Below, piece by piece: positions 11,702 to 58,257 of a stretch of DNA of 64,000 nucleotides; positions within the stretch are counted from its first letter, which is position 1, and every line of letters begins with the position of its first letter. The stretch is from NCBI GenBank assembly GCA_965208125.1, contig OZ242320.1, positions 1,504,001-1,568,000 on the forward strand, in the 5' to 3' direction. A program made the translations under genes and the position numbers. The DNA comes from Candidatus Latescibacterota bacterium (GTDB lineage: Bacteria; Latescibacterota; UBA2968). Under the pieces are notes generated by a model, which had not been told where the DNA came from, did no database searches, and worked only from the letters and a program-made list of their open reading frames with translations.

Positions 11702-11704
11702 AAC

Positions 11705-35301: not shown

Positions 35302-35334
35302 ATGGCAGCGAAAGAAGCCACACTGATTAGAGGA

Positions 35335-35363: not shown

Positions 35364-35370
35364 TGGTTTC

Positions 35371-35718
35371 ATGCCACTTGAAGATATTGTTTTGTCAACG
35401 GTGCCCTCCATCAACGGGCATACGATAAGATTGACCCACAGGCAATGGGTTCATATCACTGAGTCTCATGATTATATGGTCGGAAATCGGGAGAAGGTAC
35501 TCGAAACAATTGCCGATCCTGATTGCCTGGTCACAGGAGAATTAGGAGCAACCATTGCATTGCGACATTATGCAGAAACTAATATCACTGAAAAAACCTG
35601 TATTGCCATATATCGCGATGAGGAAGATGGATTCATTATTACAGCATTTTTAACTTCGAGGTCGGATAAAATTATGCGCAGGAGAACTACGATATGGACA
35701 CGTCCTCAATTGACCTGA
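35371..35718 (+). CDS. small RelE/BECR-fold-like putative toxin paired with DUF2283 gene
   Basis: IRLTHRQWVHITESH..M...VLETIADPD...GFIITAFLT. Overlaps the DUF2283 gene. Confidence 0.6.
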   Translation: MPLEDIVLSTVPSINGHTIRLTHRQWVHITESHDYMVGNREKVLETIADPDCLVTGELGATIALRHYAETNITEKTCIAIYRDEEDGFIITAFLTSRSDKIMRRRTTIWTRPQLT

Positions 35719-35930
35719 CATTTGCGACCGAACTGTTGCGTTTGCCATATTCGCAAGTTTGGAGTGATTATGATGAAGGGGCTGATGTCTTGTATCTCAG
35801 CTTTGAAAAACCCCAGTGTGCCAATGACAGTGTGATGGAAGATGATGGGAATATTTACCACTATCGCGACAAACGTCTTGTTGGTATTACGCTGCCCAAT
35901 GCGCGAATGCGCCTTGGTTCGGATCGCTAA
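35694..35930 (+). CDS. DUF2283-domain protein (putative antitoxin)
   Basis: DYDEGADVLYLSF...DS...LVGIT. AGGAG RBS. Confidence 0.8.
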   Translation: MDTSSIDLTFATELLRLPYSQVWSDYDEGADVLYLSFEKPQCANDSVMEDDGNIYHYRDKRLVGITLPNARMRLGSDR

Positions 35931-35954
35931 AATTCTTCTTTGAAAGGACCCTTC

Positions 35955-41788: not shown

Positions 41789-42742
41789 ATGAAAAAACAC
41801 CTTGTATTTTTTATTCTCCTATTATTATTCGGTTGCCGGCCACAGGTCTCTGACGAACAAATCACCGTCTGTTCTTTCAACATCAAATTCCTCGGACTAT
41901 ACAAAAAGAAAGACAACGAAGCACTCGCCCGATTGGTCAAAAAATACGACATGGTCGTCGTCCAGGAACTCGTTGCCCCGCCTGATAATGGCCAATACTG
42001 CGGTGGCAAGCCCTATAGCGAGGACCCCGAAGCCGATGCATTCTTCAATGCCATGAGCACACAGGGCTTTGATTACTCCCTATCTTGTGAAGACACGGGA
42101 AGAGGCGAAAACATCCACAACAGAGGATCGAGTACCGAATGGTCCGTGGTCTTTTACAAACCCGGCAAACTAAAAATCGCCAATGATCTACCCAACGGAT
42201 TCCTCGCAAAAGACCGCTCTGCCCATCCCATATACCCCCGCGTACCACACGCCCACGGTTTCCGCACCACAGATGGCAAAATGGACTTTGTCGTCATCAA
42301 CGTCCACTTGTCCCCCGGCAAAAACAAGAAAAACGAACGCAAAGCCGAACTTTTGAGCATCGCCCAGTGGATCGACCGCCACGACGCACGGGAACAGGAC
42401 TTCTACATCGTAGGGGACATGAACATCGAAAACGCAAAGGAGCTTAAAGCAGTAACCCCTCGGGGATTTATCTCGCTCAACGACGAATGCCGAAAAACGA
42501 ACACAGCGGCCAAAAGCAGCAAACCCTATGACCACATCATGTACCGCCCGGCTAAGTTCGACGAAATAGATGAAAAATTTGATTTTCAGGTCATCGACCT
42601 CATCGACCAGATGCGCAGCACCTGGCGAGGCTCCGAAACCTATCCCGGCGACCCGTACAAAGGGAGCTTATTTGCACAGCACTACTCAGATCATCACCCC
42701 GTGCTCTTCCGTCTGAACATCCCGAGCCAGGATGACGACTAA
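41789..42742 (+). CDS. DNase I-like endonuclease/exonuclease/phosphatase lipoprotein
   Basis: Lipobox LLFGC. SFNIK, VVVQE, NVHL, GDMN, YDHI and SDHHPV motifs. Confidence 0.88.
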   Translation: MKKHLVFFILLLLFGCRPQVSDEQITVCSFNIKFLGLYKKKDNEALARLVKKYDMVVVQELVAPPDNGQYCGGKPYSEDPEADAFFNAMSTQGFDYSLSCEDTGRGENIHNRGSSTEWSVVFYKPGKLKIANDLPNGFLAKDRSAHPIYPRVPHAHGFRTTDGKMDFVVINVHLSPGKNKKNERKAELLSIAQWIDRHDAREQDFYIVGDMNIENAKELKAVTPRGFISLNDECRKTNTAAKSSKPYDHIMYRPAKFDEIDEKFDFQVIDLIDQMRSTWRGSETYPGDPYKGSLFAQHYSDHHPVLFRLNIPSQDDD

Positions 42743-42771
42743 CATTGCCTACCCTGATCAATCTCCCAGGC

Positions 42772-42820
42772 AAAAAGGAAACGGGTAGAGAATATAGCAA
42801 TCCTCTACCCGTTCTTTTTT
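42772..42820. terminator. bidirectional terminator
   Basis: AAAAAGGAAACGGGTAGAG...CTCTACCCGTTCTTTTTT. Confidence 0.75.
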
Positions 42821-42845
42821 AATACCCCAATTGCAATTGAAGAGC

Positions 42846-42876
42846 ACGGGCGGGCACGGGGGCACCGCCCCTACAT
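42846..42876. repeat. REP-like element
   Basis: ACGGGCGGGCACGGGGGCACCGCCCCTACAT; 30/31 identical to 10858-10888. Confidence 0.75.
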
Positions 42877-42922
42877 ATTATACATAACCTCATAAAGGGT
42901 CGGATGCTAACAACCCCTGGAA

Positions 42923-43264
42923 TCATGCATCTCCCGACAACGCCGGGACCCGGGACTCGAAGAAATCGGACGCCAGCATAATTTGATCCTGCTGGCGCAC
43001 CACAAGCCCTTTAACGCGAGGCAAATATTCATCAACCCATCGGGGATCGCTGCGCACGGCCTGCCGCGCCTGATCAAAATGGGTATAATCGCGATACGCC
43101 CAAATGTGAACAACGCGATTTAACTTCCCAATATCGGTATAATACCACCCGGCGAGTTTGACGCCATAGTCTTCGCGCAGAGGAAGCGCCACCTCGCGCA
43201 CCGCATCCATATAGGTCTGCAAAGCACCGGGATTCAGGTCATAGGTTCGCATGTCGTAAATCAT
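42923..43264 (-). CDS. NIPSNAP family protein
   Basis: MIYDMRTYDLNPG...GWYYTDIGKLNRVVHIWAY...R.AVRSDPRW. Confidence 0.9.
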   Translation of the reverse strand: MIYDMRTYDLNPGALQTYMDAVREVALPLREDYGVKLAGWYYTDIGKLNRVVHIWAYRDYTHFDQARQAVRSDPRWVDEYLPRVKGLVVRQQDQIMLASDFFESRVPALSGDA

Positions 43265-43491
43265 AGAAAATCTCCAAAAAGGGTGAGAAAGAAATCATTC
43301 ATGCCACATATAACACGAGAATTGCTGGTATCATAATTTAGTGGAAAAACCTCACAAATACTCAGCTTTTTTATACCTCTCCATATTTTTGTACCGGGAT
43401 CCATTTTTTCCCTCCAAATTTGACACCAAAAGCGTTTGCAGCCCGTCTAAGTGTTCGATTCAGCTTTAATACAGATCCCCATGAACACAAC

Positions 43492-43580
43492 GACCGGGCC
43501 GAGATATCCCTTCACTCCAGGCCCGGTCTTCGGGGGCGGCGTGGTAAATGGTATCCCTCCCTGCCGTCCCCTCATTTTTT
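43492..43580 (+). ncRNA. candidate two-hairpin small RNA with anti-SD-like loops
   Basis: GACCGGGCC/GGCCCGGTC and GGGGGCGGC/GCCGTCCCC stems. Both loops contain TATCCCT. Followed by a U-tract. Confidence 0.4.
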
Positions 43581-43703
43581 ATGCATCCCGGAAAAATGAT
43601 TACCAAATGAAAATTATAGTTGTATTTCGGCAAATGGCAAGAAAAACCGTTACGGCCTAAAAAAATTGCCCGACTGATGCACTCACTGAACTTTTTATTA
43701 AAA

Positions 43704-44038
43704 AACTCAAGTTGTGAGGTATAAAAGCAGAAAGACTATACGCCAAAACACACCAGTGACCATATATCGTTTTTTTTCACCATATATAGTGAAAAAGATC
43801 TAAAATGCAGGTCGGATTTTTTAGAACAAAAAAATATATCTTTATTAAAAATAATCTTTTATGAATAAACTTATTTGTAGAAATCCCAATTGGCATAGTT
43901 ATTGCTTACTAAAGGGTAGTGTCAATGATATACCAGCTATCCATCAACACAATCGTTTCTTGAGAAGGTGATTGCTTGCTTCTCATATTAAAAGAATGTC
44001 ATGGACATTTTGCAATCTTTTACGTCACAACTTGAGTT
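43704..44038. repeat. 335-bp segment bounded by 14-bp perfect inverted repeats
   Basis: AACTCAAGTTGTGA (43704-43717) / TCACAACTTGAGTT (44025-44038), extending imperfectly inward (GTA..AAAG). Confidence 0.7.
43891..43906 (+). promoter_or_regulatory. sigma-54 -24/-12 promoter
   Basis: TGGCAT-AGTTA-TTGCT with canonical spacing. Upstream dyad TTCACCATATATAGTGAA and an AT-rich spacer. Confidence 0.65.
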
Positions 44039-44167
44039 ATAGAAGAAAATTTTGGCAAATAATCGAAGAGTAATTTGTATTTGGAGATTTGGAAATTATT
44101 ATTATTTCATTTGCAAATGTGAGATACACTATAAATCTGTTTTTTTGTCTATATCATAAGGTTTTTT

Positions 44168-47100
44168 ATGCTCAAATCACTTGACCGCAAAGGCATCTGG
44201 CGGACTTATTCCATGGCAGATGGCCTTCCGGGGCAACGCATTGAACACATCGCCGAAGACAGCGCGGGTTATCTCTGGTTCGCCACCTGGGACAATGGTG
44301 TTAGTCGCTTCGACGGAGACGGGTTCCAGAATTTTACGCGACAGGACGGGCTTATTGATGATCGTACTTATTTTGTTACACAAGACAGTCAGAGTCGATT
44401 GTGGTTCGGTACACTAAATGGTGTTTGCTGGTACGATGGATCAAACTTCCACCATTTGGAGGACGACGGGATTGCTGGTCGTCCTGTCCAGTTCATTTAT
44501 GAAGGCAGTGAGGGACGTATATGGTGTGGCGGTCACAGGACTCTGGGATATTACGATGGCACTATGTTCTACGACCTGATTCCGCTCTATCTGCAAGACT
44601 ACGATCAGCCACCTTCTCCTGAGTGGCCCAACCAGTGTCGGGGCATTGTCGAGGACCCAGAAGGTCACCTGTGGTTTGGCTTTAATTACCTCATCCGCTT
44701 CGATGGCACATCCTTCCACCGCTACGAGGAAAAAGAGGGTTTTCCGCCAGGCAAGATTAGCTATGCCGTGGAGCAGGACAATACCGGTAAGGTGTGGGTG
44801 GGGCAGCACGAAAACAAAAACGAACTCTGGTGCTATGTCGATGGCACCTTTCAACCTGTTGAGATAAATTTGGGTAGCCCACTGCGCAAAATTCAGTGCG
44901 ACAGGGAAGGTCGAATGTGGTTTAGCACTTCAGAAGGGGTACTCTATCAAGACGGTGATGGGTTCAGCAGGTTTACCCCTACCGATGGCCTGCCCCATCC
45001 CGCAGTCAAAGCTGTGTTGCAGGATCGCGATCATCAGTTCTGGTTCGCCACCTGGAGTGGCGTCGGCCTTTACGATGCACATAGTATCAGCGTTTTCGAC
45101 TTTAGCTCAAGGGGTTCTAAAAGAGTGAGCGAGATCTCCCAGATCGCACAAGATCGGCGAGGTGATATGTGGGTCGGGTATGTAGCTCCCGCTCTCAACC
45201 GGCTGGAGAAAAGCGTTTTTCGCTTTGACGGCGAGCACTTTGCCTTTGTAGGCACTGAGGATGGCTTTGATATCGACAACTGTTTCGCTATCTACGAGGA
45301 CCACGATGGGTGCCTGTGGTTTGGTGGTCACAATGGCTTGTTCCGCTACGATGGGAAGAAGCTCCAAAAAATGCAAACAATCGCAGGTTTAGGGAAAAGA
45401 AGTGTCAGTACAATTACCCAGGACTCGCAAGGACGATTTATTTTTGGCTATTGGGAAAGCAGCAACATAATCGAAAAAAAAGATCTTTTTGCCAGTCCTT
45501 TGAAGATCATTTATCAGCGGGGTGAGCAGTTTCAAACCATTTTTGTAAAAGATAAAAATAAGGATCCTTTCAGCTACATTGGTACTGTGATTACCGGGCG
45601 CGATAGCGAGGTTTATTTTCATCTCATTCACCAAAATTTTTCCGACAACGCTAAGAGTTTCGCGCGCTGGTATCCCGAAGATAAGCTCAAATTCTATGGG
45701 ATTGAGGATGGGCTGGTAGACAGCGGGGTCAACGACCTGCTGTTAGACTGCAATGGCAACCTGTGGATAGCTACTCAAAGAGGTCTCAGCCGCTTTGATG
45801 GCAGTACATTCCACAACTTCACGACTGAAGATGGTCTGCCGAGCAATGCCATCCGTTGCTTGTTCGAAGATTCGCAAGACCACCTCTGGCTCGGCACAGA
45901 CGGCGGCGTAGTTCACTTTGATGGTCAGTTTTTTCAGACCATCAAGTCACCGCATATAGGACCCGTTCTTCAGATACTCGAAGATCGCGACGGAGCTTTC
46001 TGGTTCGGTACAGCCCAAAATTCTCTGGTACGCTATCGTCAGCGACAGACGCCACCCATGATTCGCCTGCTTCAGGTCGTCGCCGGTCAGGTCTATGAGA
46101 ACCCGAAAGAAGTCATCGCCTCTACGACAGACCAACAGGTGACTTTCGAGTATAAGGGGATGAGTTTTTCCACACACCCCCGCGACATGCTCTATGTCTA
46201 TCGTCTTGAAGGATACGACCCCGACTGGCAACCTGCGACACGAAAGACGCGGGCCTACTACCGGAACTTGTCGCCGGGCGAGTACACCTTTCAGGTCAGA
46301 GCGATAGATCGCGACCTCAATTACTCGGAGATCGCGCAGGTGCAACTCTCCGTAGAAATGGACCCGCGCATCAGCGCACTGACCTCCATAATCAACAGCA
46401 CGGATGGCGTGGGCAAAGAATTCATCGGTGAGAGTGCGGCCCTGCACGCGTTTCAAATCCAACTCAAACAGGTCGCAGCCACTGACCTGACGGTACTATT
46501 TAAGGGCGAGACGGGTGTGGGCAAGGGACTGGCAGCGCGGGTATTACACACGCTGAGTTCCAAGTGCGATGGTCCCTTTATGCAGGTCAACTGCGGTGCA
46601 TTGCCAGCAACGTTGATCGACAGTGAACTCTTTGGTCACGAGAAGGGCGCGTTTACCAGCGCAGTGTCTCGCAAGCTGGGCAAGGTAGAACTGGCCAAGG
46701 GCGGCACACTCTTTTTGGACGAGGTCGGCGATATGACTCTGGAAACGCAGGCCAGGATGTTGCGCTTGCTGGAAGAGGGCACTTATGAGCGCGTTGGGGG
46801 TAGCGAGACACTATCGATACAGGCACGGATTGTGGCAGCGACCAATCGCGACCTTAAAGAGATGGTCAATGCAGGTACTTTCCGCGAGGACCTCTATTAT
46901 CGCCTCAATGCCTTTCCAATGTCTTTGCCGCCCCTGCGCGAGCGCAAGGAGGATATACCAGACCTCGCCGAGCTTTTCAAGACTCGCATGGCGACACATC
47001 TGAACAAGCAAATCGAGCCTTTGACCACAGAGGTGATAGAAGTGCTACAAGCCTACGATTGGCCAGGCAATGTGCGAGAACTGGAACATACGATAAACCG

Positions 47101-47347
47101 AGCCGTCATCGTGTGTCAAAATTCTCAAATTGAGGTTGCGGATATCGGCCTGATAAAAAGTAGCGATCCTGTTTCTCCAGACAGCGAAATCGTGCCAATG
47201 GCTGAATTTGAACGCCTCTATATCCTGAAAGCACTCAAAACGACCAACTGGAAGATAAGGGGAACCGAAGGCGCGGCGACGCTCCTGCAATTACCGCCTT
47301 CTACCCTGTATAACAAAATGAAAAAACTGGATATCAAGCGTACCTGA
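44168..47347 (+). CDS. sigma-54 enhancer-binding protein with N-terminal Reg_prop beta-propellers and Y_Y_Y domain
   Basis: Repeated IxEDxxGxLWFxT blades and DGL motifs. YRLEGYD...[15 protein letters not shown] (YYY). [47 protein letters not shown]-terminal Fis-type HTH. Confidence 0.93.
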
Positions 47348-47348
47348 T

Positions 47349-47390
47349 TAAACATCCGTATATGGATTGTAGTCCATATACGGATGTTTA
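47349..47390. promoter_or_regulatory. palindrome with perfect 18-bp arms, putative enhancer (UAS)
   Basis: TAAACATCCGTATATGGA-TTGTAG-TCCATATACGGATGTTTA. A third CCGTATATGG lies at about 47445. Confidence 0.65.
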
Positions 47391-47556
47391 TATGTAACTA
47401 TTTATTAATCAATAACATAAGAGCCAGTCTGAATTTCTTTTGTACCGTATATGGTTCAAAAGACATAAAATTCGGGCTGGTTTTTTTGTTAGTATAGAAA
47501 TTTTATCTCAAATAAAAATAATATCTTACGAGTATTTATTTGGATTCCATTCACAG

Positions 47557-47572
47557 TGGCACGCTTTTTGCA
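47557..47572 (+). promoter_or_regulatory. sigma-54 -24/-12 promoter of the LRR gene
   Basis: TGGCAC-GCTTT-TTGCA, a consensus match, directly downstream of a bEBP gene. Confidence 0.85.
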
Positions 47573-47679
47573 GTTATAAACTACTTTCAGGTCCCGTCAG
47601 GACCATGAACGACGTGAAGCACAAAGTTTCACAACCATAAAATCAAATCACATTTTATATCAGAGGGAGGAATTAGAAA

Positions 47680-47775
47680 ATGGTACACCAGCCAACATCG
47701 CAGCGATCACCACCCCTGCATGCTGCGAAAACCACACCCTGTTTTCAAATACGAAATAGTGTCCTGAATTTCTAA
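47680..47775 (+). CDS. 31-aa leader ORF or gene remnant
   Basis: GAGGGAGG RBS 9 nt before ATG. Translates as MVHQPTSQRSPPLHAAKTTPCFQIRNSVLNF. Confidence 0.3.
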   Translation: MVHQPTSQRSPPLHAAKTTPCFQIRNSVLNF

Positions 47776-47908
47776 AAAACATAAAACAAATCCATTGCCC
47801 CACATTTCTCACACTCAGCCCCCGTCAGGCTGATGAGCCCGGTGCTCTTGATTTTTTCCTATTCACTATCCACAGAAATGAAAAACTTTCTTTCATAAGG
47901 AATCCAAC

Positions 47909-50900
47909 ATGTCTAATCTGCTACACCTGCGTTCAACACATACCCTGAGCTTTGCACTTATGCTCATCGCGCTATTGTATCACCCCTTACCGCTCATTGC
48001 GGGATCTTCACCTGATTTTAATGGCGATGGCATTGTCGATAAATCCGACCTTCTGCTCTTGATCGGTGTGTATGGGTCCAGGGAAGGTGATGATAACTAT
48101 GATGCCAAATACGACCTGGATGGTGATGGCGTGATTGCACAGGGTGATTTGAGGATTCTTATAGGTAGGTATGGTCAAATGGTCGATTCGACCCCTTCAG
48201 TGGCGTTGCCGGTGTGTGAACGCACGCCTGCTGTGCGCGATTCGATTGTGACCTTAGCATCTGTAAGCACTTGCGGTGATGTGACGGCAACGCATCTATC
48301 TGCGATAGATTCTCTCAGTTTGAGAGGTGCAGGCCTGACAGCCTTGAAGGCTGGTGATTTTTCTGGTCTGACTGAACTGACAAAACTCAACCTATTTGAC
48401 AATACGCTCAGCAGCCTGCCCGATGGTCTCTTCGATGGCCTGACTGAACTGACCTGGCTGCATCTGGGTCGTAACCAACTAACCTCAATCCCCTCCGAAG
48501 TGGTCAAACAGACCAATCTCACTTCTCTGTGGCTTTGGGGCAATCAGTTGAGTGGTCCTGTTCCCGTTTCCGAATTGGTCAAACTATCCAACCTTGAGAC
48601 TCTGAGTCTTAGCTCCAATCAGTTCAGTGGGGAGATCCCTGTGGCATTGGGCAACCTGACCAACCTCACTTACCTGAGTCTTGGTGGTAACCAGTTGAGT
48701 GGTTCTATCCCTGCTTCCGAATTGGTCAAACTATCCAACCTTGAGACACTACATCTTTGGGGCAATCAGTTGAGTGGTTCTATCCCTGCTTCCGAATTGG
48801 TCAAACTATCCAACCTTATGGTACTGAATCTTAGCAACAATCAGTTGACTGGTGGTATTCCCCCTGAATTGGGCAACCTGACGAACCTTCAGCGCCTGCA
48901 GCTTGATCGCAATACCTTGGGCGGAGAGATTCCAACAGAATTGGGCAACCTATCCAACCTTCAGCGCCTGTATCTTTACTCCAATCAATTGACTGGTGGG
49001 ATTCCTATAGAATTGGGCAACCTGTCTAACCTGCAACGCTTATATCTTCACTCCAATCAGTTGACTGGTGGGATTCCTATAGAATTGGGCAACCTGACAA
49101 ACCTTGAGCGCCTGCGTCTTGAAAGGAATCAGTTGACTGGTGGGGTTCCTATAGAATTGGGCAGCTTATTTAATCTCACTTACCTCAATCTTAGCCGCAA
49201 TCAGTTGAGCGGAGGGATTCCTATAGAATTGGGTAACCTGACAAACCTCACTTACCTGAACCTCGGCGTGAATCAATTGAGTGGGCAGATCCCAATAGAA
49301 TTGGGCAACCTGACCAATCTTGAGTTGCTGGCAATCTGGAATAATGATTTGAGCGGTCCGATACCAACAGAATTCGGCAACCTGATCAACCTCTGGCACC
49401 TGAGCTTTGGCGGTAACCAATTAAGTGGTCCACTTCCCGTGGAATTGGGTAATCTGACCAACCTCACTTATATGACTTTTTGGAACAATCAATTGACTGG
49501 TGAGATTCCCTCAGAATTCGGCAACCTGACAAACCTCACGGAACTGCATCTCGGTGACAATGCACTTAGTGGTGAGATACCTCAGAGCCTGACAATGCTG
49601 ACGAAGCTGGAGACATTTTCATTTGGAGGTGAGGGAGGGCTATGTGCGCCAGCTGATCCGACCATTCAGATGTGGCTTGATGGCATAGAAGATGTCAACG
49701 GCCCGACTTGCGCCCCACCAGGCCAGCGCGAGGCATTGGTGGCGCTATACAATGCAACAGATGGAGGCAATTGGACAAATAACGACAATTGGCTAACCGA
49801 CAACGACATTTCCTCCTGGTATGGCGTCGAGATTTCTGACGGTTCGGTGACAGGATTGCGCCTGGAAGAAAACAATTTGACAGGAGAGATTCCAACAGAA
49901 TTGGGCAACCTGACTAACCTCAGGTGGCTGGTTCTTGTCGATAATAAGTTGAGTGGGGAGATCCCATCTCAATTGGGCAACTTGTCAAATCTTACAGGGC
50001 TGTGGCTTCACGATAATGAGTTGAGTGGCCTGATTCCTGCAGAGTTGGGCAACTTGTCCAACCTTGAGAAGCTGGAGTTTGACAGGAATGCGTTGACTGG
50101 GGAGATCCCCTCAGAATTGGGTAACCTTACCAATCTCAAGCACCTGGCTCTTAACAACAATGTGTTGAGTGGGGAGATCCCCTCAGAATTGGGTAACCTG
50201 ACGAACCTGGAGGAAATGAATCTTCATGATAATCAGTTGAGCGGTGCGATCCCTGCGGAATTAGGGAACCTGGCCAACCTTAATGCACTGAATCTTTGGA
50301 ATAATCAGTTAAGCGGTAGTATTCCAGAGGAATTAGGGAACCTATCTAACCTTGAGCGCCTGGAGCTTTGGGACAATCAGTTGAGTGGGGAGATCCCCTC
50401 AGAATTGGGTAACTTGTCCAACCTCACCATCCTGATTCTTGGCGTTGGCGACAATGCGTTAAGTGGCTCAATCCCACCCGAATTGGGCAACTTGTCCAAC
50501 CTTGAGGTACTGAAGCTTGACGGCAATGCGTTGAGCGGTGAGCTCCCATCAGAATTGGGCAACTTGTCCAACCTTAAGGAACTGAATCTTTGGGGCAATC
50601 CGTTGACTGGTACACTTCCCCAAAGCCTGACAATGCTGACAATGCTGGAGAACTTTCACTTTGGAGGTGGAGGATTATGTGCGCCGTCTGATGCGGCCTT
50701 TCAGGCATGGCTTCAGGGTATTGAAGATGTCAACGGCCCAACTTGCGCCCTACCAGGCCAGCGCGAGGCATTGGTGGCACTGTATAATACGACAGGTGGA
50801 GACAATTGGACGAATAATGACAACTGGCTCACCGACAACGACATCTCCTCCTGGTATGGCATCGGCGTTTCTGACGGTTCGGTGACAGGATTGCACCTGG

Positions 50901-52747
50901 GAGAGAACAACCTGACAGGAGAGATTCCTGCCGAATTGGGTAACCTGACAAACCTTGAGGACCTAAATCTTGTCGCCAATCAATTGAGCGGAGAGATCCC
51001 ACCTGAATTGGGCAACCTGACCAATCTCACCGCACTATGGCTCTGGGGCAATCAATTGACTGGGACGATCCCAACGGAATTGAGTAACTTGACAAATCTC
51101 AGGTACCTGGGTTTTGGACAGAATTCATTGAGCGGCTCGATTCCACCTGAATTGGGCAACTTGACCAATCTTATGGAACTGACTCTTAACGATAACCAAT
51201 TGAGTGGCTCCATTCCCTCAGAATTTGGCAACCTGACAAACCTCACTCTCCTGGGTCTTTGGACCAATCAGTTGACTGGTTCGATTCCCTCAGAATTGGG
51301 CAACTTGTCTAACCTTGAGGAACTGAGTCTCGGCGGCAATCAATTGACTGGAGAGATCCCATCTGAATTGAGTAACCTGACTAACCTTGAATCCCTGGGT
51401 CTTGAAGGCAATCAGTTGAGTGGGGAGATCCCAATAGAATTGGGCAATTTGACCAATCTTACAGGACTAATTCTCTGGGGCAATCAGTTGACTGGTGGAA
51501 TACCCGTAGAATTGGGTAACCTGACAAACCTTGAATACCTGGATCTTGTTGCCAATCAGTTGAGCGGAGAGATCCCATCTGAATTGGGCAACCTGACAAA
51601 CCTCATCTTCTTGGGGCTTCGCGGTAATCAGTTGAGTGGCTCTATTCCAACGGAATTGGGCAACTTGTCCAACCTTGAGGTACTGAAGCTTGACGATAAT
51701 GCGTTGAGCGGTGAGTTCCCATCAGAATTGGGCAATCTGTCCAACCTTAAGGAACTGAATCTTTGGGGCAATCCGTTGACTGGTGCACTTCCCCAAAGCC
51801 TGACAATGCTGACAATGCTGGAGAACTTTCACTTTGGAGGTGGAGGATTATGTGCGCCATCTGATGCGGCCTTTCAGGCATGGCTGCAGGGCATTGAAGA
51901 TGTCAACGGTCCGACTTGCCCCCCACCAGGTCAGCGCGAGGCATTGGTCGCACTATATAATGCAACGGATGGAGCCAATTGGACGAATAATGACAATTGG
52001 CTCACCGACAACGACATCTCCTCCTGGCATGGCGTCGAGGTTTCTGACGGTTCGGTGACAGGATTGCACCTGGGGGGTAATAATCTGACAGGTGAGATCC
52101 CAACTGAATTGACCAACCTGACAAACGTGACTTTCCTGAATTTTGGCGGTAATCAGTTGAGTGGCGCCATTCCAACGGAATTGGGCAACCTATCCAATCT
52201 TACTTATCTGTGGCTTAACGGTAATCAGTTGACTGGGGAGATTCCATCAGAATTGGGCAACCTGACTAATCTCACTGATCTTTGGCTTGGCGGTAATCAG
52301 TTGAGTGGCTCTATTCCAACGGAATTGAGCAATCTGTCCAACCTTAAGGAACTGAATCTTTGGGGCAATCAGTTGACTGGGCAGATACCAACTGAATTGG
52401 GCAACCTGACGAACCTTGAGAGACTGGATCTTAACGGTACTCAATTGACTGGGCAGATACCAGCAGAATTGGGCAGCCTGACAAACCTCACTTTCTTGGG
52501 GTTGGGGCTTAGTAGTGATTTGACTGGGCAGATACCAACTGAATTGGGCAACCTGACAAACCTCACAGAACTGTGGCTTGGCGGCAATCAGTTGACTGGT
52601 TCGCTACCTCAGAGTCTGACAATGCTGACGAAGCTACAGACATTTCACTTTTGGAGTGAGGGCGACCTATGTGCGCCGTCTGATGCGGCCTTTCAGACGT
52701 GGCTTCAGGGCATTGAAGATGCCAATGGCCCAACTTGCTCGCAATAG
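47909..52747 (+). CDS. secreted modular leucine-rich-repeat protein with N-terminal EF-hand/dockerin-like domain
   Basis: AAGGA RBS, signal peptide, DFNGDGIVD/DLDGDGVIA pair. Dozens of 24-aa LxxLxLxxNQLxGxIPxELGN repeats in four capped blocks. Confidence 0.93.
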   Translation: MSNLLHLRSTHTLSFALMLIALLYHPLPLIAGSSPDFNGDGIVDKSDLLLLIGVYGSREGDDNYDAKYDLDGDGVIAQGDLRILIGRYGQMVDSTPSVALPVCERTPAVRDSIVTLASVSTCGDVTATHLSAIDSLSLRGAGLTALKAGDFSGLTELTKLNLFDNTLSSLPDGLFDGLTELTWLHLGRNQLTSIPSEVVKQTNLTSLWLWGNQLSGPVPVSELVKLSNLETLSLSSNQFSGEIPVALGNLTNLTYLSLGGNQLSGSIPASELVKLSNLETLHLWGNQLSGSIPASELVKLSNLMVLNLSNNQLTGGIPPELGNLTNLQRLQLDRNTLGGEIPTELGNLSNLQRLYLYSNQLTGGIPIELGNLSNLQRLYLHSNQLTGGIPIELGNLTNLERLRLERNQLTGGVPIELGSLFNLTYLNLSRNQLSGGIPIELGNLTNLTYLNLGVNQLSGQIPIELGNLTNLELLAIWNNDLSGPIPTEFGNLINLWHLSFGGNQLSGPLPVELGNLTNLTYMTFWNNQLTGEIPSEFGNLTNLTELHLGDNALSGEIPQSLTMLTKLETFSFGGEGGLCAPADPTIQMWLDGIEDVNGPTCAPPGQREALVALYNATDGGNWTNNDNWLTDNDISSWYGVEISDGSVTGLRLEENNLTGEIPTELGNLTNLRWLVLVDNKLSGEIPSQLGNLSNLTGLWLHDNELSGLIPAELGNLSNLEKLEFDRNALTGEIPSELGNLTNLKHLALNNNVLSGEIPSELGNLTNLEEMNLHDNQLSGAIPAELGNLANLNALNLWNNQLSGSIPEELGNLSNLERLELWDNQLSGEIPSELGNLSNLTILILGVGDNALSGSIPPELGNLSNLEVLKLDGNALSGELPSELGNLSNLKELNLWGNPLTGTLPQSLTMLTMLENFHFGGGGLCAPSDAAFQAWLQGIEDVNGPTCALPGQREALVALYNTTGGDNWTNNDNWLTDNDISSWYGIGVSDGSVTGLHLGENNLTGEIPAELGNLTNLEDLNLVANQLSGEIPPELGNLTNLTALWLWGNQLTGTIPTELSNLTNLRYLGFGQNSLSGSIPPELGNLTNLMELTLNDNQLSGSIPSEFGNLTNLTLLGLWTNQLTGSIPSELGNLSNLEELSLGGNQLTGEIPSELSNLTNLESLGLEGNQLSGEIPIELGNLTNLTGLILWGNQLTGGIPVELGNLTNLEYLDLVANQLSGEIPSELGNLTNLIFLGLRGNQLSGSIPTELGNLSNLEVLKLDDNALSGEFPSELGNLSNLKELNLWGNPLTGALPQSLTMLTMLENFHFGGGGLCAPSDAAFQAWLQGIEDVNGPTCPPPGQREALVALYNATDGANWTNNDNWLTDNDISSWHGVEVSDGSVTGLHLGGNNLTGEIPTELTNLTNVTFLNFGGNQLSGAIPTELGNLSNLTYLWLNGNQLTGEIPSELGNLTNLTDLWLGGNQLSGSIPTELSNLSNLKELNLWGNQLTGQIPTELGNLTNLERLDLNGTQLTGQIPAELGSLTNLTFLGLGLSSDLTGQIPTELGNLTNLTELWLGGNQLTGSLPQSLTMLTKLQTFHFWSEGDLCAPSDAAFQTWLQGIEDANGPTCSQ

Positions 52748-52830
52748 GACACACTCGGACGAGACGATAAATAGAACAACCTGCGTAAACACTATGAGCG
52801 GAGGTGAATTTTAGACTCAGGAACCTGAGG

Positions 52831-52872
52831 TAAAACAAAAGGCCGTAAGCATTGCTCATTTGCAGCAAAAAC
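52831..52872. repeat. degenerate duplicate of the tRNA-Gln terminator region
   Basis: TAAAACAAAAGGCCGTAAG..TG.TCATTT.CAGCAAAAAC, repeated at 53073-53114 (37/42). Confidence 0.7.
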
Positions 52873-53078
52873 GGCAGGAGGCTCTGTCGGATTGGTAGTC
52901 AGCCAGTGGTCCTCTGCCGCAACATACAGAGCAGGTATGGTCCAGCAAACTATAACCTGCTCTTTTTATGGGAATTATATACAAAAGTGGAGTTACCCCG
53001 CTTTGGTCGAGTATTTAGGGCTTACAAAGCCTTTATTGTGATTGTTACGCAATGAAGTAACTTTGGCAGAGCTAAAAC

Positions 53079-53126
53079 AAAAGGCCGTAAGTGCTGTTCA
53101 TTTACAGCAAAAACTTACGGCCTTTT
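53079..53126 (-). terminator. terminator downstream of tRNA-Gln
   Basis: AAAAGGCCGTAAG...CTTACGGCCTTTT hairpin. Confidence 0.7.
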
Positions 53127-53137
53127 AAAAAATGAAA

Positions 53138-53208
53138 TTGCCCCCCAGGGATTCGAACCCCGATTCTACGGTCCAGAGCCGCATGTCTTGCCATTAGACC
53201 AGGGGGCA
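53138..53208 (-). tRNA. tRNA-Gln(CTG), CCA not encoded
   Basis: TGCCCCC acceptor, TGCGG-CT-CTG-GA-CCGTA anticodon arm, GTTCGAATC T-loop. Confidence 0.95.
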
Positions 53209-53245
53209 AAAATATATAATTAGCGTTTCGAGATAGCACGCCCCA

Positions 53246-54667
53246 TCACGACCCCAGAACCTCCAGCGCCTTCTTAAGCCTGCGAATACACGTCTCCTGT
53301 CCGAGCACAGCCATCAGTTCAAACAACCCCGGCCCGAACCCAACGCCGCAAAGCGCGAGCCGCGTTGGATGAATCAGCCTGGAAGCCGAAATCCCCAGTT
53401 CACCAGATAGCGTGCGCGTCACACCCTCAATATCGCCCTCACCGAACGAATCCAAACTCTCCAAACGCTCAATCATCAACGCAACGCGCTCGGGCGTATC
53501 CGTCTTCCAGTTCTTCTTCGCCGTCTTTGCATCATACACATCCGGATCCACAAAAAAATAACCCGTATGCTTCAAATCCTCAAGCGTATGCAACCGCGGC
53601 TGCAACAACGCCGCAATCCTCATCAACTCATCCCGCCGCTCAGAAGCCTCTGCCTCAGAAAGCCACCCCTCCGCAATCCAAATCGGTATCGCATCGTCCA
53701 ACACCTCATCCACCGGACGAAGACGCATATGCTCGCCATTGAGCCACACCAGCTTCTTCTCATCGAAAATCGCATCTCGCTTGAGCAACCCCGCAACAGA
53801 AAACGCCTCGACCAACGCATCTCGCGCAAACACCTCGCGCTCATCCCCGGGCGCCCATCCCAACAGCGCGAGATAATTAAACATCGCATCCGACAAAAAA
53901 CCCCGCTCCTGATACTCCGAAATCGTCGTCGCACCGTGGCGCTTGGACAACTTGCTGCCATCGGGACCCAAAATCAGCGTCGAATGCCCATACTCCGGCA
54001 CCATCCACGAAAGCGCCTCAAACAGCATAATCTGCTTCGGCGTATTCGACAAATGATCCGCAGACCGCAACACCAGATTCACACCCATATTGTGATCATC
54101 CACCACCACAGCGAGATTGTAAACAGGCGAACCATCGGGCCGCAACAAAACAAAATCCTCAACCTCGGCATTATCCCACCTCTGCACCCCCCGAATGCGA
54201 TCGTGCCAGACCGTCTCACCCGCCGGCACCTTAAACCGCACAACCCGTGGCCGCCCCTCCGCCTCAAAAGCCGCCTGCTGTTCCGGCGTCAAATCCCGAT
54301 TGTAGCGCACCCGGCGCTTCTCGACCTGCGCCTGTCGGCGCATCGCATCAAGCTCTTCCGCAGTCTCATAGCCGTAATACGCATGACCCGTCTCCACCAG
54401 ACGCGCGACGGCCTGCTTATGCGCCTCGGCATTGCGCGACTGAAACACTGGCTCGGCGTCAAAATCAACACCGAGCCAGTTCAAACCGTCCAGAATCGTT
54501 TGAAGCGACGACTCTGTAAAACGCTCTCGATCTGTATCTTCCACGCGCAACAACAACTTTGCCTGGTAGTGCTTCGCGTAAAGATGATTAAAAATCGCCG
54601 TTCGCGCATTCCCCACGTGAAACCCACCTGTGGGAGACGGCGCAAAACGCAAAACCGTATCCGACAT
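53246..54667 (-). CDS. gltX: glutamate--tRNA ligase
   Basis: RFAPSPTG.FHVGN, LRVEDTD, YNLAVVVDD, KLSKRHG, NYLALLGW. Confidence 0.97.
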   Translation of the reverse strand: MSDTVLRFAPSPTGGFHVGNARTAIFNHLYAKHYQAKLLLRVEDTDRERFTESSLQTILDGLNWLGVDFDAEPVFQSRNAEAHKQAVARLVETGHAYYGYETAEELDAMRRQAQVEKRRVRYNRDLTPEQQAAFEAEGRPRVVRFKVPAGETVWHDRIRGVQRWDNAEVEDFVLLRPDGSPVYNLAVVVDDHNMGVNLVLRSADHLSNTPKQIMLFEALSWMVPEYGHSTLILGPDGSKLSKRHGATTISEYQERGFLSDAMFNYLALLGWAPGDEREVFARDALVEAFSVAGLLKRDAIFDEKKLVWLNGEHMRLRPVDEVLDDAIPIWIAEGWLSEAEASERRDELMRIAALLQPRLHTLEDLKHTGYFFVDPDVYDAKTAKKNWKTDTPERVALMIERLESLDSFGEGDIEGVTRTLSGELGISASRLIHPTRLALCGVGFGPGLFELMAVLGQETCIRRLKKALEVLGS

Positions 54668-54688
54668 CGAAAATCGACCTGTGAATAT

Positions 54689-54781
<93 letters not shown>

Positions 54782-54837
54782 GCGAACAAAAACGAACAGC
54801 AGAAAGTAACAAAGGATCTGTATAAATGCAAGATAAA

Positions 54838-54925
54838 TGGCGGTGGGGGTGGGATTCGAACCCACGGACCCGCGAGGGTCAACGGTTTTCAAGACCGCCC
54901 GATTCGACCGCTCTCGCACCCCACC
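54838..54925 (-). tRNA. tRNA-Ser(TGA)
   Basis: GGTGGGG...GCGGT-CT-TGA-AA-ACCGT, long variable arm, GTTCGAATC, GCCA end. Confidence 0.96.
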
Positions 54926-54938
54926 GCACCATCCGAAA

Positions 54939-54967
54939 AGTATAGACAAGCGCCCCATCTGTGTCAA
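54939..54967 (-). promoter_or_regulatory. sigma-70 promoter of the tRNA-Ser/gltX/tRNA-Gln unit
   Basis: Minus strand TTGACA-17 nt-TATACT, 13 nt before the first tRNA. Confidence 0.85.
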
Positions 54968-55158
54968 GCGGTTTGTATCAACTCGACTTAAACACACTTA
55001 AACTTTGTTTTTCTTCTATTTATCAATCAAATATCCAATAATCCCATCCGCCAAAAAAGGGTTTGCGTTGCCCGTGCCCTTCCTGTATTTTTAGGCACAA
55101 ACCTGTAACATGACCCAGAAAATCTCAACACCGCGCGCACGACCTCGCACCCTCCCCT

Positions 55159-56727
55159 ATGATTGAGCTTATCACCGGCTCCCAGATGGCATCCATTGAC
55201 CGTCGGGCAATAGACAGTGGTGTGCCGGGCATCGAACTCATGGAAGCCGCCGGGCAAGGCGTAACCCGGGCAGTAGAAAACCTGTTGGGCGACTTCCAAA
55301 ACCGGCACATCGTCATCCTCTGTGGCAAAGGCAACAACGGCGGCGACGGCTTTGTCATCGCCAGGCAAGCTGCCCAAAGCGGTGCAAAAGTCCAGGTATT
55401 CACAGCCACATCCGCCCGGGAAATAACAGGCGATGCAAAAACCAACCTCGACCGACTGCCCCCGGACATCGTGCAGCCGGTTGACCACATCGCAACAGTA
55501 CAAAGCGCACTACTCAACGCCGACATCGCCGTTGACGCGCTATTGGGCACGGGCATTCAGGGACCTCCCCGCGGCATATACGCCGAACTCATAAACGCAC
55601 TCACCCGCGCCAAATGCCCCATAGTCGCCGTAGATATACCCTCTGGACTCAACGCCGACACGGGCAAAATCGAAGGACCCTGTGCAACCGCAACATGCAC
55701 AGTCACATTTGCACTGCCCCGCATTGGACACTTCTTCTACCCCGGACGCGCCCGGTGCGGCAAACTGCACCTCATCGACATCGGGATCCCCCCCTCGGCA
55801 ATTGAGCCCGAGCGCATCCGCACCTACCTCATCGACAACCGCCGCTGCGCTCGTCTGCTCCCCCACCGGGAACCCGACGCCCACAAAGGAGACTGCGGCA
55901 GAGTATATATCCTCGCCGGATCCGTGGGACTCACAGGCGCGGCGGCACTCTCGGCAAACGCGGCACTCAAAGGAGGCGCGGGCCTCGTCACACTCGGCGT
56001 ACCCAAAAGCCTCAACGACATACTCGAAACCAAAGTCACCGAAGCCATGACCCACCCGCTACCCGAAGTCAAAAAAGTCAGATGCCTGTCCCTGCGCGCC
56101 CGGGGCGAAATAAAACGCGCATGTCGCACAGCCGACAGCATCGCCATTGGCCCAGGCTCAGGCACCCACCGGGAAACCGTCGAACTCATCCGTCGCCTCG
56201 TGCGCGACCTGAGTTGCCCGGCAGTCATCGACGCCGACGCACTCAACGCCCTCGCTGGCGACCTCGATGCGATTCGCGCCTGCGAAACACCCCTGGTACT
56301 CACCCCGCACATCGGAGAATTTGCGCGCCTGACCGGGTACAGCATCGCCGAAATACAGCGCGACCCCATTGCACGCGCCCTGAAATTCGCCACCGATGTC
56401 GGGGCCACCATCATCCTGAAAGGCGCGCCAACTATTGTCGCAACGCCAGAAGGCGAAACACACATCAACCCAACCGGCAACCCGGGAATGGCCACCGGCG
56501 GCACAGGAGACGTACTCACGGGCCTTCTCGCCGCACTCATCGGTCAAGGACTCAACCCCTCAGACGCCGCCTGCACAGCCGTCTATCTCCACGGCCTTGC
56601 CGCTGATATCGCAACAAAAAAAACCGGACACATAAGCCTCATCGCCAGTGACATCATCGAAAACTTTGCCGCCGCCATTCACCAGATACGCATCAGCACG
56701 GACTGCTTAGACTTACACCTCACATAA
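55159..56727 (+). CDS. nnr: bifunctional NAD(P)H-hydrate epimerase/dehydratase
   Basis: LMEAAG, CGKGNNGGDG, DALLGTG, AVDIPSG, HKGDCG, VIDADAL, LTPHIGEF, MATGGTGDVL. Confidence 0.95.
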   Translation: MIELITGSQMASIDRRAIDSGVPGIELMEAAGQGVTRAVENLLGDFQNRHIVILCGKGNNGGDGFVIARQAAQSGAKVQVFTATSAREITGDAKTNLDRLPPDIVQPVDHIATVQSALLNADIAVDALLGTGIQGPPRGIYAELINALTRAKCPIVAVDIPSGLNADTGKIEGPCATATCTVTFALPRIGHFFYPGRARCGKLHLIDIGIPPSAIEPERIRTYLIDNRRCARLLPHREPDAHKGDCGRVYILAGSVGLTGAAALSANAALKGGAGLVTLGVPKSLNDILETKVTEAMTHPLPEVKKVRCLSLRARGEIKRACRTADSIAIGPGSGTHRETVELIRRLVRDLSCPAVIDADALNALAGDLDAIRACETPLVLTPHIGEFARLTGYSIAEIQRDPIARALKFATDVGATIILKGAPTIVATPEGETHINPTGNPGMATGGTGDVLTGLLAALIGQGLNPSDAACTAVYLHGLAADIATKKTGHISLIASDIIENFAAAIHQIRISTDCLDLHLT

Positions 56728-56735
56728 TCAACGCG

Positions 56736-56802
56736 CGGGACGGCACAGGGGCCGTCCCCTACAATCGGATACATTACCTTTGATCGCTAACCTCTGAAAG
56801 CT
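56736..56802. repeat. REP-like element plus degenerate heptamer repeats
   Basis: CGGGACGGCACAGGGGCCGTCCCCTAC, then TGATCGCTAACCTCTGAAAGCT. Confidence 0.7.
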
Positions 56803-56806
56803 CTTT

Positions 56807-58255: not shown

Positions 58256-58257
58256 CC

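Follow-up and report, generated by a model that had tools for sequence, protein, structure and literature searches.

We analyzed a 64-kb stretch of the genome of Candidatus Latescibacterota bacterium, an organism of the sponge-symbiont type (assembly GCA_965208125.1, contig OZ242320.1, positions 1,504,001-1,568,000 of the forward strand; hereinafter, the window), with the focus on a segment that abuts a tRNA-Gln gene. This segment encodes a predicted one-component sigma-54 activator (hereinafter, the regulator) and, behind a palindrome, an A/T-rich spacer and a -24/-12 promoter, a large leucine-rich repeat (LRR) protein. All these elements had been listed in an earlier note on the same DNA and were found in place; a second long hairpin lies between the palindrome and the spacer (Table 1). 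The comparative analysis described below indicates that the region is probably a cassette belonging to a lineage-specific, multi-copy family of the Latescibacterota type, in which a sigma-54 activator is combined with its own enhancer and promoter and with an exchangeable cargo gene.

Table 1. Features of the variable segment next to tRNA-Gln and of its immediate vicinity (window coordinates)
Feature	Coordinates	Strand	Basis or remarks
Hypervariable segment between conserved flanks	43586-53067	.	Synteny with the chromosome carrying L055 and L066
Left junction repeat	43642-43697	+	Degenerate terminator arm, A-run, TTGCCC, then GACTGATGCACTCACTGAAC
Second enhancer-hairpin-spacer-promoter module (putative)	43759-43910	+	Profile match; colinear alignment with the downstream module
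Conserved 5' region of the regulator gene	44041-44167	+	Similarity to L008, L001, L026
Regulator gene, predicted one-component sigma-54 activator	44168-47347	+	1059 aa; Pfam, AlphaFold2, Foldseek
Perfect palindrome, putative enhancer sites 1 and 2, also an RNA hairpin	47349-47390	+	Inverted-repeat search, fold, cores in orthologues
Long hairpin with putative enhancer site 3 at its apex, then T7	47421-47487	+	RNA fold, conservation
Conserved A/T-rich spacer	47488-47556	+	Conserved blocks among modules
Sigma-54 -24/-12 promoter TGGCACGCTTTTTGCA	47557-47572	+	Exact consensus match
Leader specific to the LRR cargo	47573-47908	+	336 nt; homology to orthologues ends at 47572
Cargo LRR gene	47909-52747	+	1612 aa; Pfam, PDB matches, internal repeats
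Cargo tail with truncated terminator copy (distal arm and loop)	52748-52872	+	Similarity to L008
Dispersed repeat of ~108 nt interrupting the cargo terminator	52860-52971	+	Copies 83-89% identical in L029 and L017
Intact tRNA-Gln terminator hairpin	53066-53136	-	Read from the sequence; two L066 copies with 91-94% identity
tRNA-Gln(ctg) gene, anchoring the variable segment on the right	53137-53209	-	ARAGORN; Rfam tRNA, 57 bits

A predicted propeller-sensor sigma-54 activator and its family

In the Pfam scan, the regulator consists of many Reg_prop repeats (E 6e-50) and a Y_Y_Y domain (2e-15) followed by Sigma54_activat (3.6e-64), AAA_lid_14 and a C-terminal helix-turn-helix (HTH) domain of the HTH_8 family (27.2 bits at a cut-off of 22), with no histidine kinase, receiver or AraC-type HTH. 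The ATPase contains the Walker A motif GETGVGK at residue 780 and the arginine finger RVGG at 875, and TLFLDEVG can be read from the translation; the loop that contacts sigma-54, canonically GAFTGA, is GAFTSA at residue 827. The protein contains no transmembrane or other hydrophobic segment and no signal peptide (the maximum 19-residue Kyte-Doolittle mean is 0.94), and therefore, the sensor is predicted to be cytoplasmic.

The AlphaFold2 model of the regulator, obtained with a 42-sequence alignment as the input, has a mean predicted local distance difference test score of 85. In a Foldseek comparison, residues 1 to ~730 of this model, which encompass two beta-propellers and the Y_Y_Y domain, match in fold the periplasmic glycan sensors that belong to the hybrid two-component systems (HTCS) of Bacteroides, with BT3049 (3v9f; E 5.5e-40, target-normalised TM-score (TMt) 0.68) and BT4663 (4a2m; E ~1e-39, TMt 0.64) among the matches, and the AAA+ domain superposes on those of NtrC1, FleQ and LuxO (TMt ~0.9). 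The sequence matches of the regulator in the PDB include ZraR, NtrC1, FleQ and DmpR as well as the Bacteroides sensors at E ~4e-34.

A word-based protein search returned 3673 homologues of the regulator, of which the best 120 are 70-88% identical to it, several being encoded on one chromosome; in a representative protein library, all these proteins fall into one cluster at the 50% identity level. In the representative library of 1.84 billion proteins, 21 full-length relatives of the sensor part combine the sensor with Sigma54_activat (10 proteins), with the AAA+ lid and HTH only (1), with a histidine kinase (8) or with a SpoIIE phosphatase (2). Thus, the fusion of the propeller sensor with a sigma-54 activator extends beyond the regulator's own family. 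In the literature, we found no paper naming both Reg_prop and Sigma54_activat, and a search with propeller and enhancer-binding terms yielded nothing relevant among the matches listed.

For the comparative analysis, one genome per species was scanned with the regulator, resulting in 69 loci (L001-L069), up to 8 of which reside on one chromosome. Most come from Latescibacterota assemblies, several are labelled Gemmatimonadota, and one Rhodothermaceae; the weakest locus, L069 from a Spirochaetaceae assembly, matches only the AAA+-HTH part (residues 766-1056, 43% identity). The genome from which the window was taken is absent from this set, and the closest locus is L005, with 88% amino-acid identity. 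The 5' region of the regulator gene is 82-90% identical to the equivalent position in L008, L001 and L026 and partially conserved in L052 and L053; it probably contains the regulator's own basal promoter and ribosome-binding site. No further remnants of regulators were detected in the 64-kb window by tblastn.

A conserved module of a putative enhancer, a hairpin and a promoter

Within the 64 kb, there are two exact matches to TGGCAY-N5-TTGCW (0.19 are expected, and two or more were obtained in 3 of 100 shuffled sequences). One of these boxes precedes the LRR gene; the other, which is absent from the earlier note, is located upstream of the regulator gene (43891-43906).

The palindrome, which begins 2 nt past the TGA stop codon of the regulator gene, consists of two 18-nt, 100% complementary arms (47349-47366 and 47373-47390) separated by a 6-nt loop. 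Each arm harbors one putative enhancer core, CCGTATATGG at 47356-47365 (site 1) and CCATATACGG at 47374-47383 (site 2), and a third core (site 3, 47445-47454), beginning 71 bp further on, occupies the apex of the second hairpin (47421-47480), which is followed by a run of seven T (47481-47487). These three places are the only exact matches to CCRTATAYGG in the window; with up to one mismatch allowed, there are 13 matches against 4.85 +/- 2.3 expected, including those at 43760 and 43780. The palindrome had been proposed to be the enhancer of a self-contained circuit; the circuit is supported by the present analysis, and the palindrome itself appears to be better described as two adjacent dyad sites that, together with the third one, would be private to each regulator. 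The DNA between the palindrome and the promoter is strongly A/T-rich (26.5% GC in 47391-47556). The spacer might serve as a bend or a site for IHF or HU; an IHF consensus was not seen there in a by-eye look, so that this idea stays conjectural.

When the window was compared with a profile derived from 40 modules, all of them from other loci, only two full-length matches were obtained, one behind the regulator gene (47439-47574, E 3.8e-23) and one in front of it (43776-43907, E 4.9e-14). The upstream copy aligns colinearly with 47395-47595 (local score 43 against 12.4 +/- 2.0 for shuffled sequences, 0 of 1000 reaching it) and contains two near-cognate sites (43760-43769 and 43780-43789), each one mismatch away from CCRTATAYGG, with a distance of ~107 bp between the site centre and -24, as calculated from the coordinates. 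This second module may confer positive feedback on the regulator or subordinate it to a sister paralog. Simple autoregulation was considered but not retained as the only reading, given that the regulator's own core is one mismatch off and that the site type of L017 and L029 appears, by eye, to be as close or closer. In these two loci, the cargo is another activator, so that the module may instead belong to a cascade from a sister paralog.

A near-consensus -24/-12 box with one mismatch (TGGCATATAACTTGTT) is present elsewhere in the window (13288-13303), upstream of an open reading frame (ORF; 13476-14189) and a gene for a SusC-like TonB-dependent receptor (14218-17472). This region does not match the module profile; in L065, the cargo behind the module likewise encodes a TonB-dependent receptor.

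We searched all 69 loci for TGG[CT]A[CT]-N5-TTGC[ATC] within 500 bp of the regulator gene. In 24 loci, the box is located on the same strand, 157-458 bp past the regulator stop codon (layout A), and in 16, on the opposite strand, 258-354 bp before the start codon (layout B); given that three loci contain both, 37 of the 69 possess a module. This tabulation of homologous regulators does not refute the earlier reading of the arrangement as a circuit. In layout A, the stop codon is followed by two adjacent dyad sites, a short A/T stretch, a conserved stem GCCAGTCTGA...TCAGACTGGC that encloses the third dyad and ends in a T-run, an A/T-rich block and the -24/-12 box. Layout B consists of the same parts, including the hairpin, mirrored and placed upstream of the regulator. 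There, the sites and the hairpin are not located behind any gene, and therefore, the hairpin is a part of the promoter module rather than simply the terminator of the regulator gene. In both layouts, the T-run is oriented in the direction of the cargo promoter, which fits an insulator.

In 16 of the related loci (L006, L011, L022, L033 and L051, for example), the string TGGCAC-N5-TTGCC is found inside the regulator coding region. This string has no zero-mismatch match in the window's regulator and may reflect conserved codons.

Putative binding sites co-vary with the DNA-binding domain

The three dyads are most readily interpreted as binding sites of the regulator. Every site is individually dyad-symmetric; orthologues keep the cores, paralogs differ, and the three sites co-vary within a locus. 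Specifically, the site type is (A/T)CCGTATATGG(A/T) in the window, L001, L005 and L054, GATCATATACGATC in L038 and L051, GCGATATATCG in L044, L066, L030 and L003, and GGCCATTTATGGCC in L055 and L008. Dyads at the hairpin apex were called automatically in 16 of the 23 layout-A loci. The apex 16-mers match the stop-proximal 62 nt of their own locus at 11.09 of 16 positions on average, compared with 9.62 +/- 1.39 for other loci, and none of 20000 permuted pairings reached this value. This comparison replaced an earlier one with 12-mers over whole zones (10.30 for own versus 9.58 for other loci; 0 of 10000), which was noisy because matches to the A/T-rich background score 9-10 of 12.

The geometry of the module is fixed relative to the promoter and not to the gene. 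Of 16 loci, 15 have the centre of site 3 at 106-111 bp from -24 (108 in the window) and the remaining one at 122 bp, in contrast to the distance from the stop codon, which varies from 79 to 126 in the same loci.

The least conserved positions of the HTH domain are 1029, 1031, 1033, 1034, 1038 and 1049, which we take to be the equivalents of the DNA-contacting residues of Fis. The distances between sites correlate with the distances between these variable residues (Mantel r = 0.39, 3 of 10000 permutations; partial r 0.39), and the HTH distances do not track those of the AAA+ domain (r = 0.10). At the level of individual residues, all four apex-detected loci with Ser at the equivalent of 1049 have GCGA or GATGA outer half-sites, and the loci with Asn at this position carry CCGTA or CCAT.

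The LRR cargo and the exchange of cargo genes

The LRR gene encodes four tandem blocks of 24-residue plant-type LRRs with Cys-containing caps, recognized by the Pfam families LRR_1, LRR_4, LRR_8 and LRR_14; at the DNA level, there is a 72-nt period with 26 copies, and the internal repeats are 83-93% identical. The 24-residue consensus of this LRR class is LxxLxLxxNxLSGxIPxxLGxLxxL. The best PDB matches are the ectodomains of the plant proteins GSO1 (E 3.7e-150), FLS2, MIK2 and PEPR1, down to 1e-121. The cargo shares with these proteins the LRR class and the cap-like linkers but differs from plant receptor kinases in having neither a transmembrane segment nor a kinase domain, in the tandem arrangement of four blocks, in the N-terminal dockerin and in being bacterial; LRRNT_2 was not reported by Pfam at E <= 0.01. 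A signal-peptide-like hydrophobic segment (residues 13-31) and a Dockerin_1 domain (residues 36-85, 28.2 bits at a cut-off of 22.9) at the N-terminus suggest that the protein is exported and displayed. With the first 330 residues as the query, we obtained 7224 repeat-driven matches, none of which was a close full-length relative or carried an informative name.

Comparison with the closest orthologues (78-89% nucleotide identity) pinpoints the boundary between the conserved and variable parts of the cassette. In the blastn alignments, the similarity begins at 44153 (L005), 44041 (L001) or 44162 (L054) and in all three cases stops at 47572, where the -12 element ends, with nothing shared beyond. 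The orthologues and an orphan module in L005 remain alike for ~35 nt further, whereas the window diverges right after TTGCA. In the orthologues, the module precedes a gene for a 376-414-aa NCH3-like protein, to which L005 adds two genes with FGE-sulfatase domains. Thus, the sensor-to-LRR unit of the earlier note is not supported as such: the LRR gene is not fixed in it.

The orphan module of L005 (2264-2524), located 7.5 kb ahead of the full cassette, is a 92% identical copy comprising the enhancer, the promoter and the final 33 nt of the regulator gene. Behind it are a 145-aa ORF and a further pair of genes with FGE-sulfatase domains.

At its 3' end, the LRR gene is related to a cassette of a different paralog: the last LRR block and the 3' tail are shared with the smaller LRR cargo of L008 (64% amino-acid identity in the block), and the cargo tail is 90% identical at the nucleotide level to L008 15455-15579, directly behind the LRR gene of that locus. 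Taken together, the swap of the cargo at -12 and the tail shared with L008 imply two modules, one comprising the regulator, enhancer and promoter and the other one the leader, cargo and terminator. The ORF that precedes the LRR gene of L008 was considered as its severed N-terminal part and rejected because no similarity was found.

The leader, compared with the 69 loci, yields a single 33-nt match. It includes a 31-codon ORF (47680-47775) behind a strong Shine-Dalgarno sequence, GAGGGAGGA, folds with z = -3.6 and ends with a 4-bp stem and a T-run just before the LRR start codon; these elements could constitute a leader peptide or an attenuator.

A Pfam scan of the 37 first ORFs behind module promoters revealed a broad range of cargo. 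The LRR proteins, which account for 6 of the 37 and have leaders of 126-856 nt, are accompanied by proteins with Cadherin, fn3, Calx-beta, SWM-repeat or FlgD_ig domains (4), NCH3-like repeat proteins (4), a WD40 protein (1), dockerin-bearing enzymes (2), proteins combining PKD with FGE-sulfatase (2) and further propeller activators, which form putative cascades (3; L003, L017 and L029). Single cases include a multicopper oxidase, a P450, a TonB-dependent receptor, a HAD hydrolase, a response regulator, an FRG-domain protein and an IS605 TnpB-like gene; one ORF (L039) gives a weak Peptidase_S55 match below the Pfam cut-off, and 9 have no Pfam match. The IS605 OrfB/TnpB-like gene (L031 1957-3078), the largest ORF behind a divergent promoter, is probably an insertion into the cassette.

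A hypervariable segment next to tRNA-Gln

The cassette is located between two conserved flanks. The left flank, with Exo_endo_phos and NIPSNAP genes (window 41789-43585), corresponds to L055 7917-9663 at 84-86% identity, and the right flank, which includes the tRNA-Gln terminator, tRNA-Gln, gltX and two tRNA-Ser genes (window 53068-59559), to L066 16018-22499 at 91%. Between these flanks, the window contains 9.5 kb with a single cassette, as opposed to ~34.9 kb in the chromosome that carries L055 and L066, where the interval encompasses genes for giant cadherin/fn3 proteins and for no fewer than three regulators of the family, one of which has decayed into fragments. The earlier note viewed the segment as a portable island. 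Its hypervariability between conserved flanks agrees with this view; its gene content does not, and the repeat found at its junction is also present at loci that have no detected tRNA-Gln.

In 43586-53067, we detected no integrase, transposase or other mobility gene: the ORFs of at least 150 aa are those of the regulator, the LRR protein and one antisense ORF inside the regulator gene, and Pfam searches with the two genes identified regulator and LRR/dockerin domains only. The only smaller ORFs scanned, 43451-43657 and 47440-47637, matched no family. The GC content of the segment (0.478) is near that of the flanks (0.512 and 0.544), and a foreign origin on the basis of composition was accordingly rejected.

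The segment had also been described as bounded by two imperfect copies of the tRNA-Gln 3' end and terminator. The right-hand pair of terminator-like repeats, 52827-52872 and 53069-53114, are 87% identical (score 34 against 8.5 +/- 1.4 for shuffled sequences, reached by 0 of 1000), the first of the two being the LRR gene's own terminator, cut after the loop by the ~108-nt dispersed repeat. The left copy (43640-43672) is weak: its score with the tRNA-proximal copy is 14.5 against 8.9 +/- 1.4, reached by 4-7 of 1000 shuffles, and it has only 6 nt (TTGCCC) in common with tRNA-Gln itself. A three-way MAFFT alignment of the terminators placed the left copy unconvincingly, and we relied on the pairwise scores and on a nine-sequence alignment with relatives. 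The left copy belongs to the left junction repeat, which recurs in L001 (19690-19747, 87%) and L008 (15574-15623, 85%), and a 32-nt stretch of it is 100% identical in L008 and L026. It flanks the regulator and LRR cassette of L008 on both sides and is also present in L001 and L026, with no tRNA-Gln found at these three loci. An Rfam search of 43000-53400 at E <= 1 detected the tRNA only, apart from two sub-threshold chance matches.

In L066, a second terminator with 63 nt of tRNA-Gln (15099-15231, 95% identical) precedes the real tRNA by 790 bp. The regulator beside tRNA-Gln in this locus (10000-12678) has decayed, with two internal deletions and fragmented frames.

Because no recombinase gene was found among the ORFs of at least 150 aa, the GC content is near that of the flanks and the junction repeat occurs at loci without a detected tRNA-Gln, we read the segment as a cassette locus that is prone to recombination and anchored at tRNA-Gln rather than a self-mobile element. 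Additional dispersed repeats occur here. Copies of the ~108-nt repeat are found in L029 (9679-9786, 13462-13567, 17449-17552 and 21090-21199), every ~3.7 kb beside tandem regulator cassettes, and in L017 (8478-8584); this repeat may be regulatory or similar to miniature inverted-repeat transposable elements. A separate 36-39-nt repeat (window 52985-53023) is 85-89% identical to sequences in L006, L005, L036 and L047, in either orientation.

A model of the cassette and the alternatives

In the classical logic of sigma-54 control, an activator at upstream sites acts across a looping spacer on a -24/-12 promoter. In the cassette, dimers of the regulator would bind the three dyad-symmetric sites (~14 bp each) just past the regulator's own stop codon, the third one at the apex of the terminator hairpin, ~108 bp upstream of -24. 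Read-through from the regulator gene would be blocked by this hairpin together with the T-run, so that the cargo would be transcribed only from the sigma-54 promoter. The A/T-rich spacer would allow the bound hexamer to contact the closed complex at TGGCAC-N5-TTGCA, and, once a cytoplasmic signal relieves the sensor control, ATP hydrolysis would open the promoter. Transcription would then cover the leader and the gene for the dockerin-tagged, plant-type LRR protein, which is predicted to be exported via Sec. Through the near-cognate module before its gene, the regulator would stimulate its own expression or be controlled by a sister paralog. The regulator, enhancer and promoter would evolve as a conserved unit, and the cargo would be exchanged by recombination right after -12.

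Several observations weigh against this interpretation. The model assumes that the regulator is competent for sigma-54 contact, and the contact loop is GAFTSA in 107 of 121 family members and GAFTGA in 4. No -24/-12 match was found within 500 bp in 32 of the 69 loci, including the majority of the distant family members (57-64% identity). Column conservation among the paralogs is 0.79-0.83 in the sensor compared to 0.845 in the AAA+ domain; the sensor being about as conserved as the ATPase argues against widely different ligands and hence against a different ligand for each paralog. Within the sensor (residues 1-735), the loops that vary among the paralogs are at residues 61-80, 141-160, 181-220, 301-360 and 401-440. 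With regard to the sites, the apex call lacks a dyad in 7 of the 23 layout-A loci, where the own-locus score is no better than the cross-locus one; the site distances correlate also with the AAA+ distances (r = 0.41), so that shared ancestry contributes; and the set includes orthologous loci, so that the rows in the locus-level statistics, those on the sites in particular, are not independent. The RNA fold of 47340-47490, which comprises both hairpins, is strong (-62 kcal/mol, z = -11.3) and compatible with a role purely at the RNA level. As for the cargo, the junction right after -12 and the unique structured leader imply that the coupling may be recent, attenuated or lost, and the scan that found no sigma-70-like site on the + strand of 47573-47908 was confined to promoters other than those of the Bacteroidota type.

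Some of these observations would be accommodated by alternative explanations. The palindrome and the second hairpin could be RNA elements only, that is, a stabiliser and the terminator of the regulator gene, with the enhancer located elsewhere and the resemblance among the sites being a property of hairpin-forming sequence. A perfect stem of 18-19 bp located 2 nt after the stop codon, and a second long hairpin followed by U7, with the folding energy given above, are what such a role would predict, and any self-complementary site can pair with any other. However, this role requires neither dyad symmetry of single sites nor an apex that matches the stop-proximal sites, and it does not account for the constant spacing to -24 at variable distances from the stop codon or for the 16 loci with the same sites in the divergent intergenic region upstream of the regulator; moreover, the site type tracks HTH residues. 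The two roles are compatible with each other. We consider an exclusively RNA-level function quite unlikely. Alternatively, the sigma-54 module could be intact but uncoupled from the LRR gene, which would use its own promoter in the leader or be silent. The end of homology to all close orthologues at the promoter boundary, the different cargo of these orthologues, the near absence of leader matches among the 69 loci and the features of the leader itself (its structure, the small ORF with the strong Shine-Dalgarno sequence, and the stem with the T-run) would fit this possibility. Nevertheless, the -24/-12 box fits the consensus perfectly within a fully conserved module, the scan of the leader revealed neither a sigma-70-like promoter on its + strand nor a strong terminator, and 6 of the 37 other modules scanned also have an LRR gene as their cargo; uncoupling thus appears unlikely.

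Finally, the entire 9.5-kb segment could be an integrative mobile element inserted in the 3' end of tRNA-Gln, with the repeats representing attL and attR. The repeats resembling the terminator and tRNA end at both ends, the partial tRNA-Gln duplication in the syntenic L066, the different content between the same flanks across genomes and the orthologous cassettes at non-syntenic places are all features that an element of this kind could produce. These features have to be reconciled with the lack of an integrase or transposase gene among the ORFs of at least 150 aa, with a left copy that shares just 6 nt with the tRNA, with the presence of the junction repeat in L001, L026 and, in two copies, L008, all of them loci without a detected tRNA-Gln, and with a GC content near that of the flanks; homologous recombination between dispersed module and terminator repeats would suffice without an integrase. 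An integrative element therefore seems rather improbable. Weighing these arguments together, we favor the interpretation of the region as a cassette with an activator, a dedicated enhancer and promoter, and an exchangeable cargo.

Other features of the window

Outside the segment, several features are worth recording. The large subunit of carbamoyl-phosphate synthase is encoded by two adjacent ORFs (56807-58255 and 58258-60069), with the break inside the oligomerisation domain. Two paralogous DUF6785/DUF6784 genes are present in the 64 kb (1717-3705 on the - strand and 30202-32187 on the + strand). A patch with a GC content of 0.41-0.44 (32239-35939) consists of a 631-aa ORF without a Pfam match and ~1.8 kb without a long ORF, and a 50-nt repeat in this patch (35250-35301) is common to L066, L020 and L054.

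Relationship to known systems and biological implications

The regulator resembles one-component activators of the NtrC family, such as DmpR/XylR and NorR, in the combination of an AAA+ domain with a C-terminal Fis-type HTH and in having several dyad sites located 100-200 bp ahead of a -24/-12 promoter. As in these activators, direct fusion of the sensor to the ATPase would make a partner kinase unnecessary. The differences from this family lie in the double beta-propeller and Y_Y_Y sensor, which takes the place of a receiver, GAF, PAS or V4R domain, in the GAFTSA loop, in the location of the enhancer directly behind the regulator gene (or inverted before it) with a built-in terminator hairpin, and in the existence of many near-identical paralogs with different site specificities. 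The closest structural parallel for the sensor is with the HTCS proteins BT4663, BT3049 and BT4673 (Foldseek E 5.5e-40 to 6e-38, TMt 0.61-0.68 over ~800 columns). The Bacteroides hybrid two-component regulators are encoded beside the loci that they control. In contrast to these proteins, to which it is 17-18% identical, the regulator has a predicted cytoplasmic sensor, a sigma-54 output and no kinase, receiver or AraC domains; this would be the first use that we found described of a Bacteroides-type double-propeller sensor in the cytoplasm, coupled to sigma-54.

The segment itself is similar to tRNA-linked islands in that variable DNA, bounded by repeats on either side, abuts a tRNA gene at its 3' side, and in that a related genome contains a partially duplicated tRNA. 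It differs from such islands in the lack of an integrase, in the dispersed intergenic nature of the repeats, in the host-like composition and in the content, which is an array of regulatory cassettes from the host's own paralog family.

Eukaryote-like proteins of sponge symbionts are widely proposed to mediate host recognition. In our literature search, no link was found between these proteins and sigma-54, nor a dedicated switch for each gene. LRR, fn3, cadherin and WD40 proteins have been described as eukaryotic-like proteins in genome bins of sponge-associated Latescibacterota (PMC12993501), and the passages of that report that were searched mention no sigma factor, propeller or regulator for them. 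Our observations are compatible with a broader hypothesis, which we consider possible although doubtful at this stage, that sponge-associated Latescibacterota possess numerous one-component sigma-54 switches that are orthogonal to each other and jointly constitute a library. Each switch would combine a cytoplasmic double propeller resembling glycan sensors and a private three-site enhancer, insulating terminator and promoter with a different eukaryote-like surface protein or glycan-modifying enzyme (LRR, cadherin/fn3, WD40 or FGE-sulfatase-like); some would be arranged in cascades; and the cargo would be re-dealt by recombination at -12 and at the dispersed terminator repeats, yielding a reprogrammable and signal-specific host-facing surface.

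The cassettes described here are of interest in several respects. The regulator family provides natural pairs of activators and enhancers that differ in DNA specificity while retaining a fixed geometry, which makes them useful both as orthogonal parts based on sigma-54 and for deciphering the recognition code of the Fis-type HTH. The break in the cargo at -12 documents gene swapping at a promoter boundary as a mode of regulon rewiring. Furthermore, if each eukaryote-like gene comes with a dedicated, readable switch, the regulation of these genes becomes testable from the sequence, through the sites, promoters and cascades.

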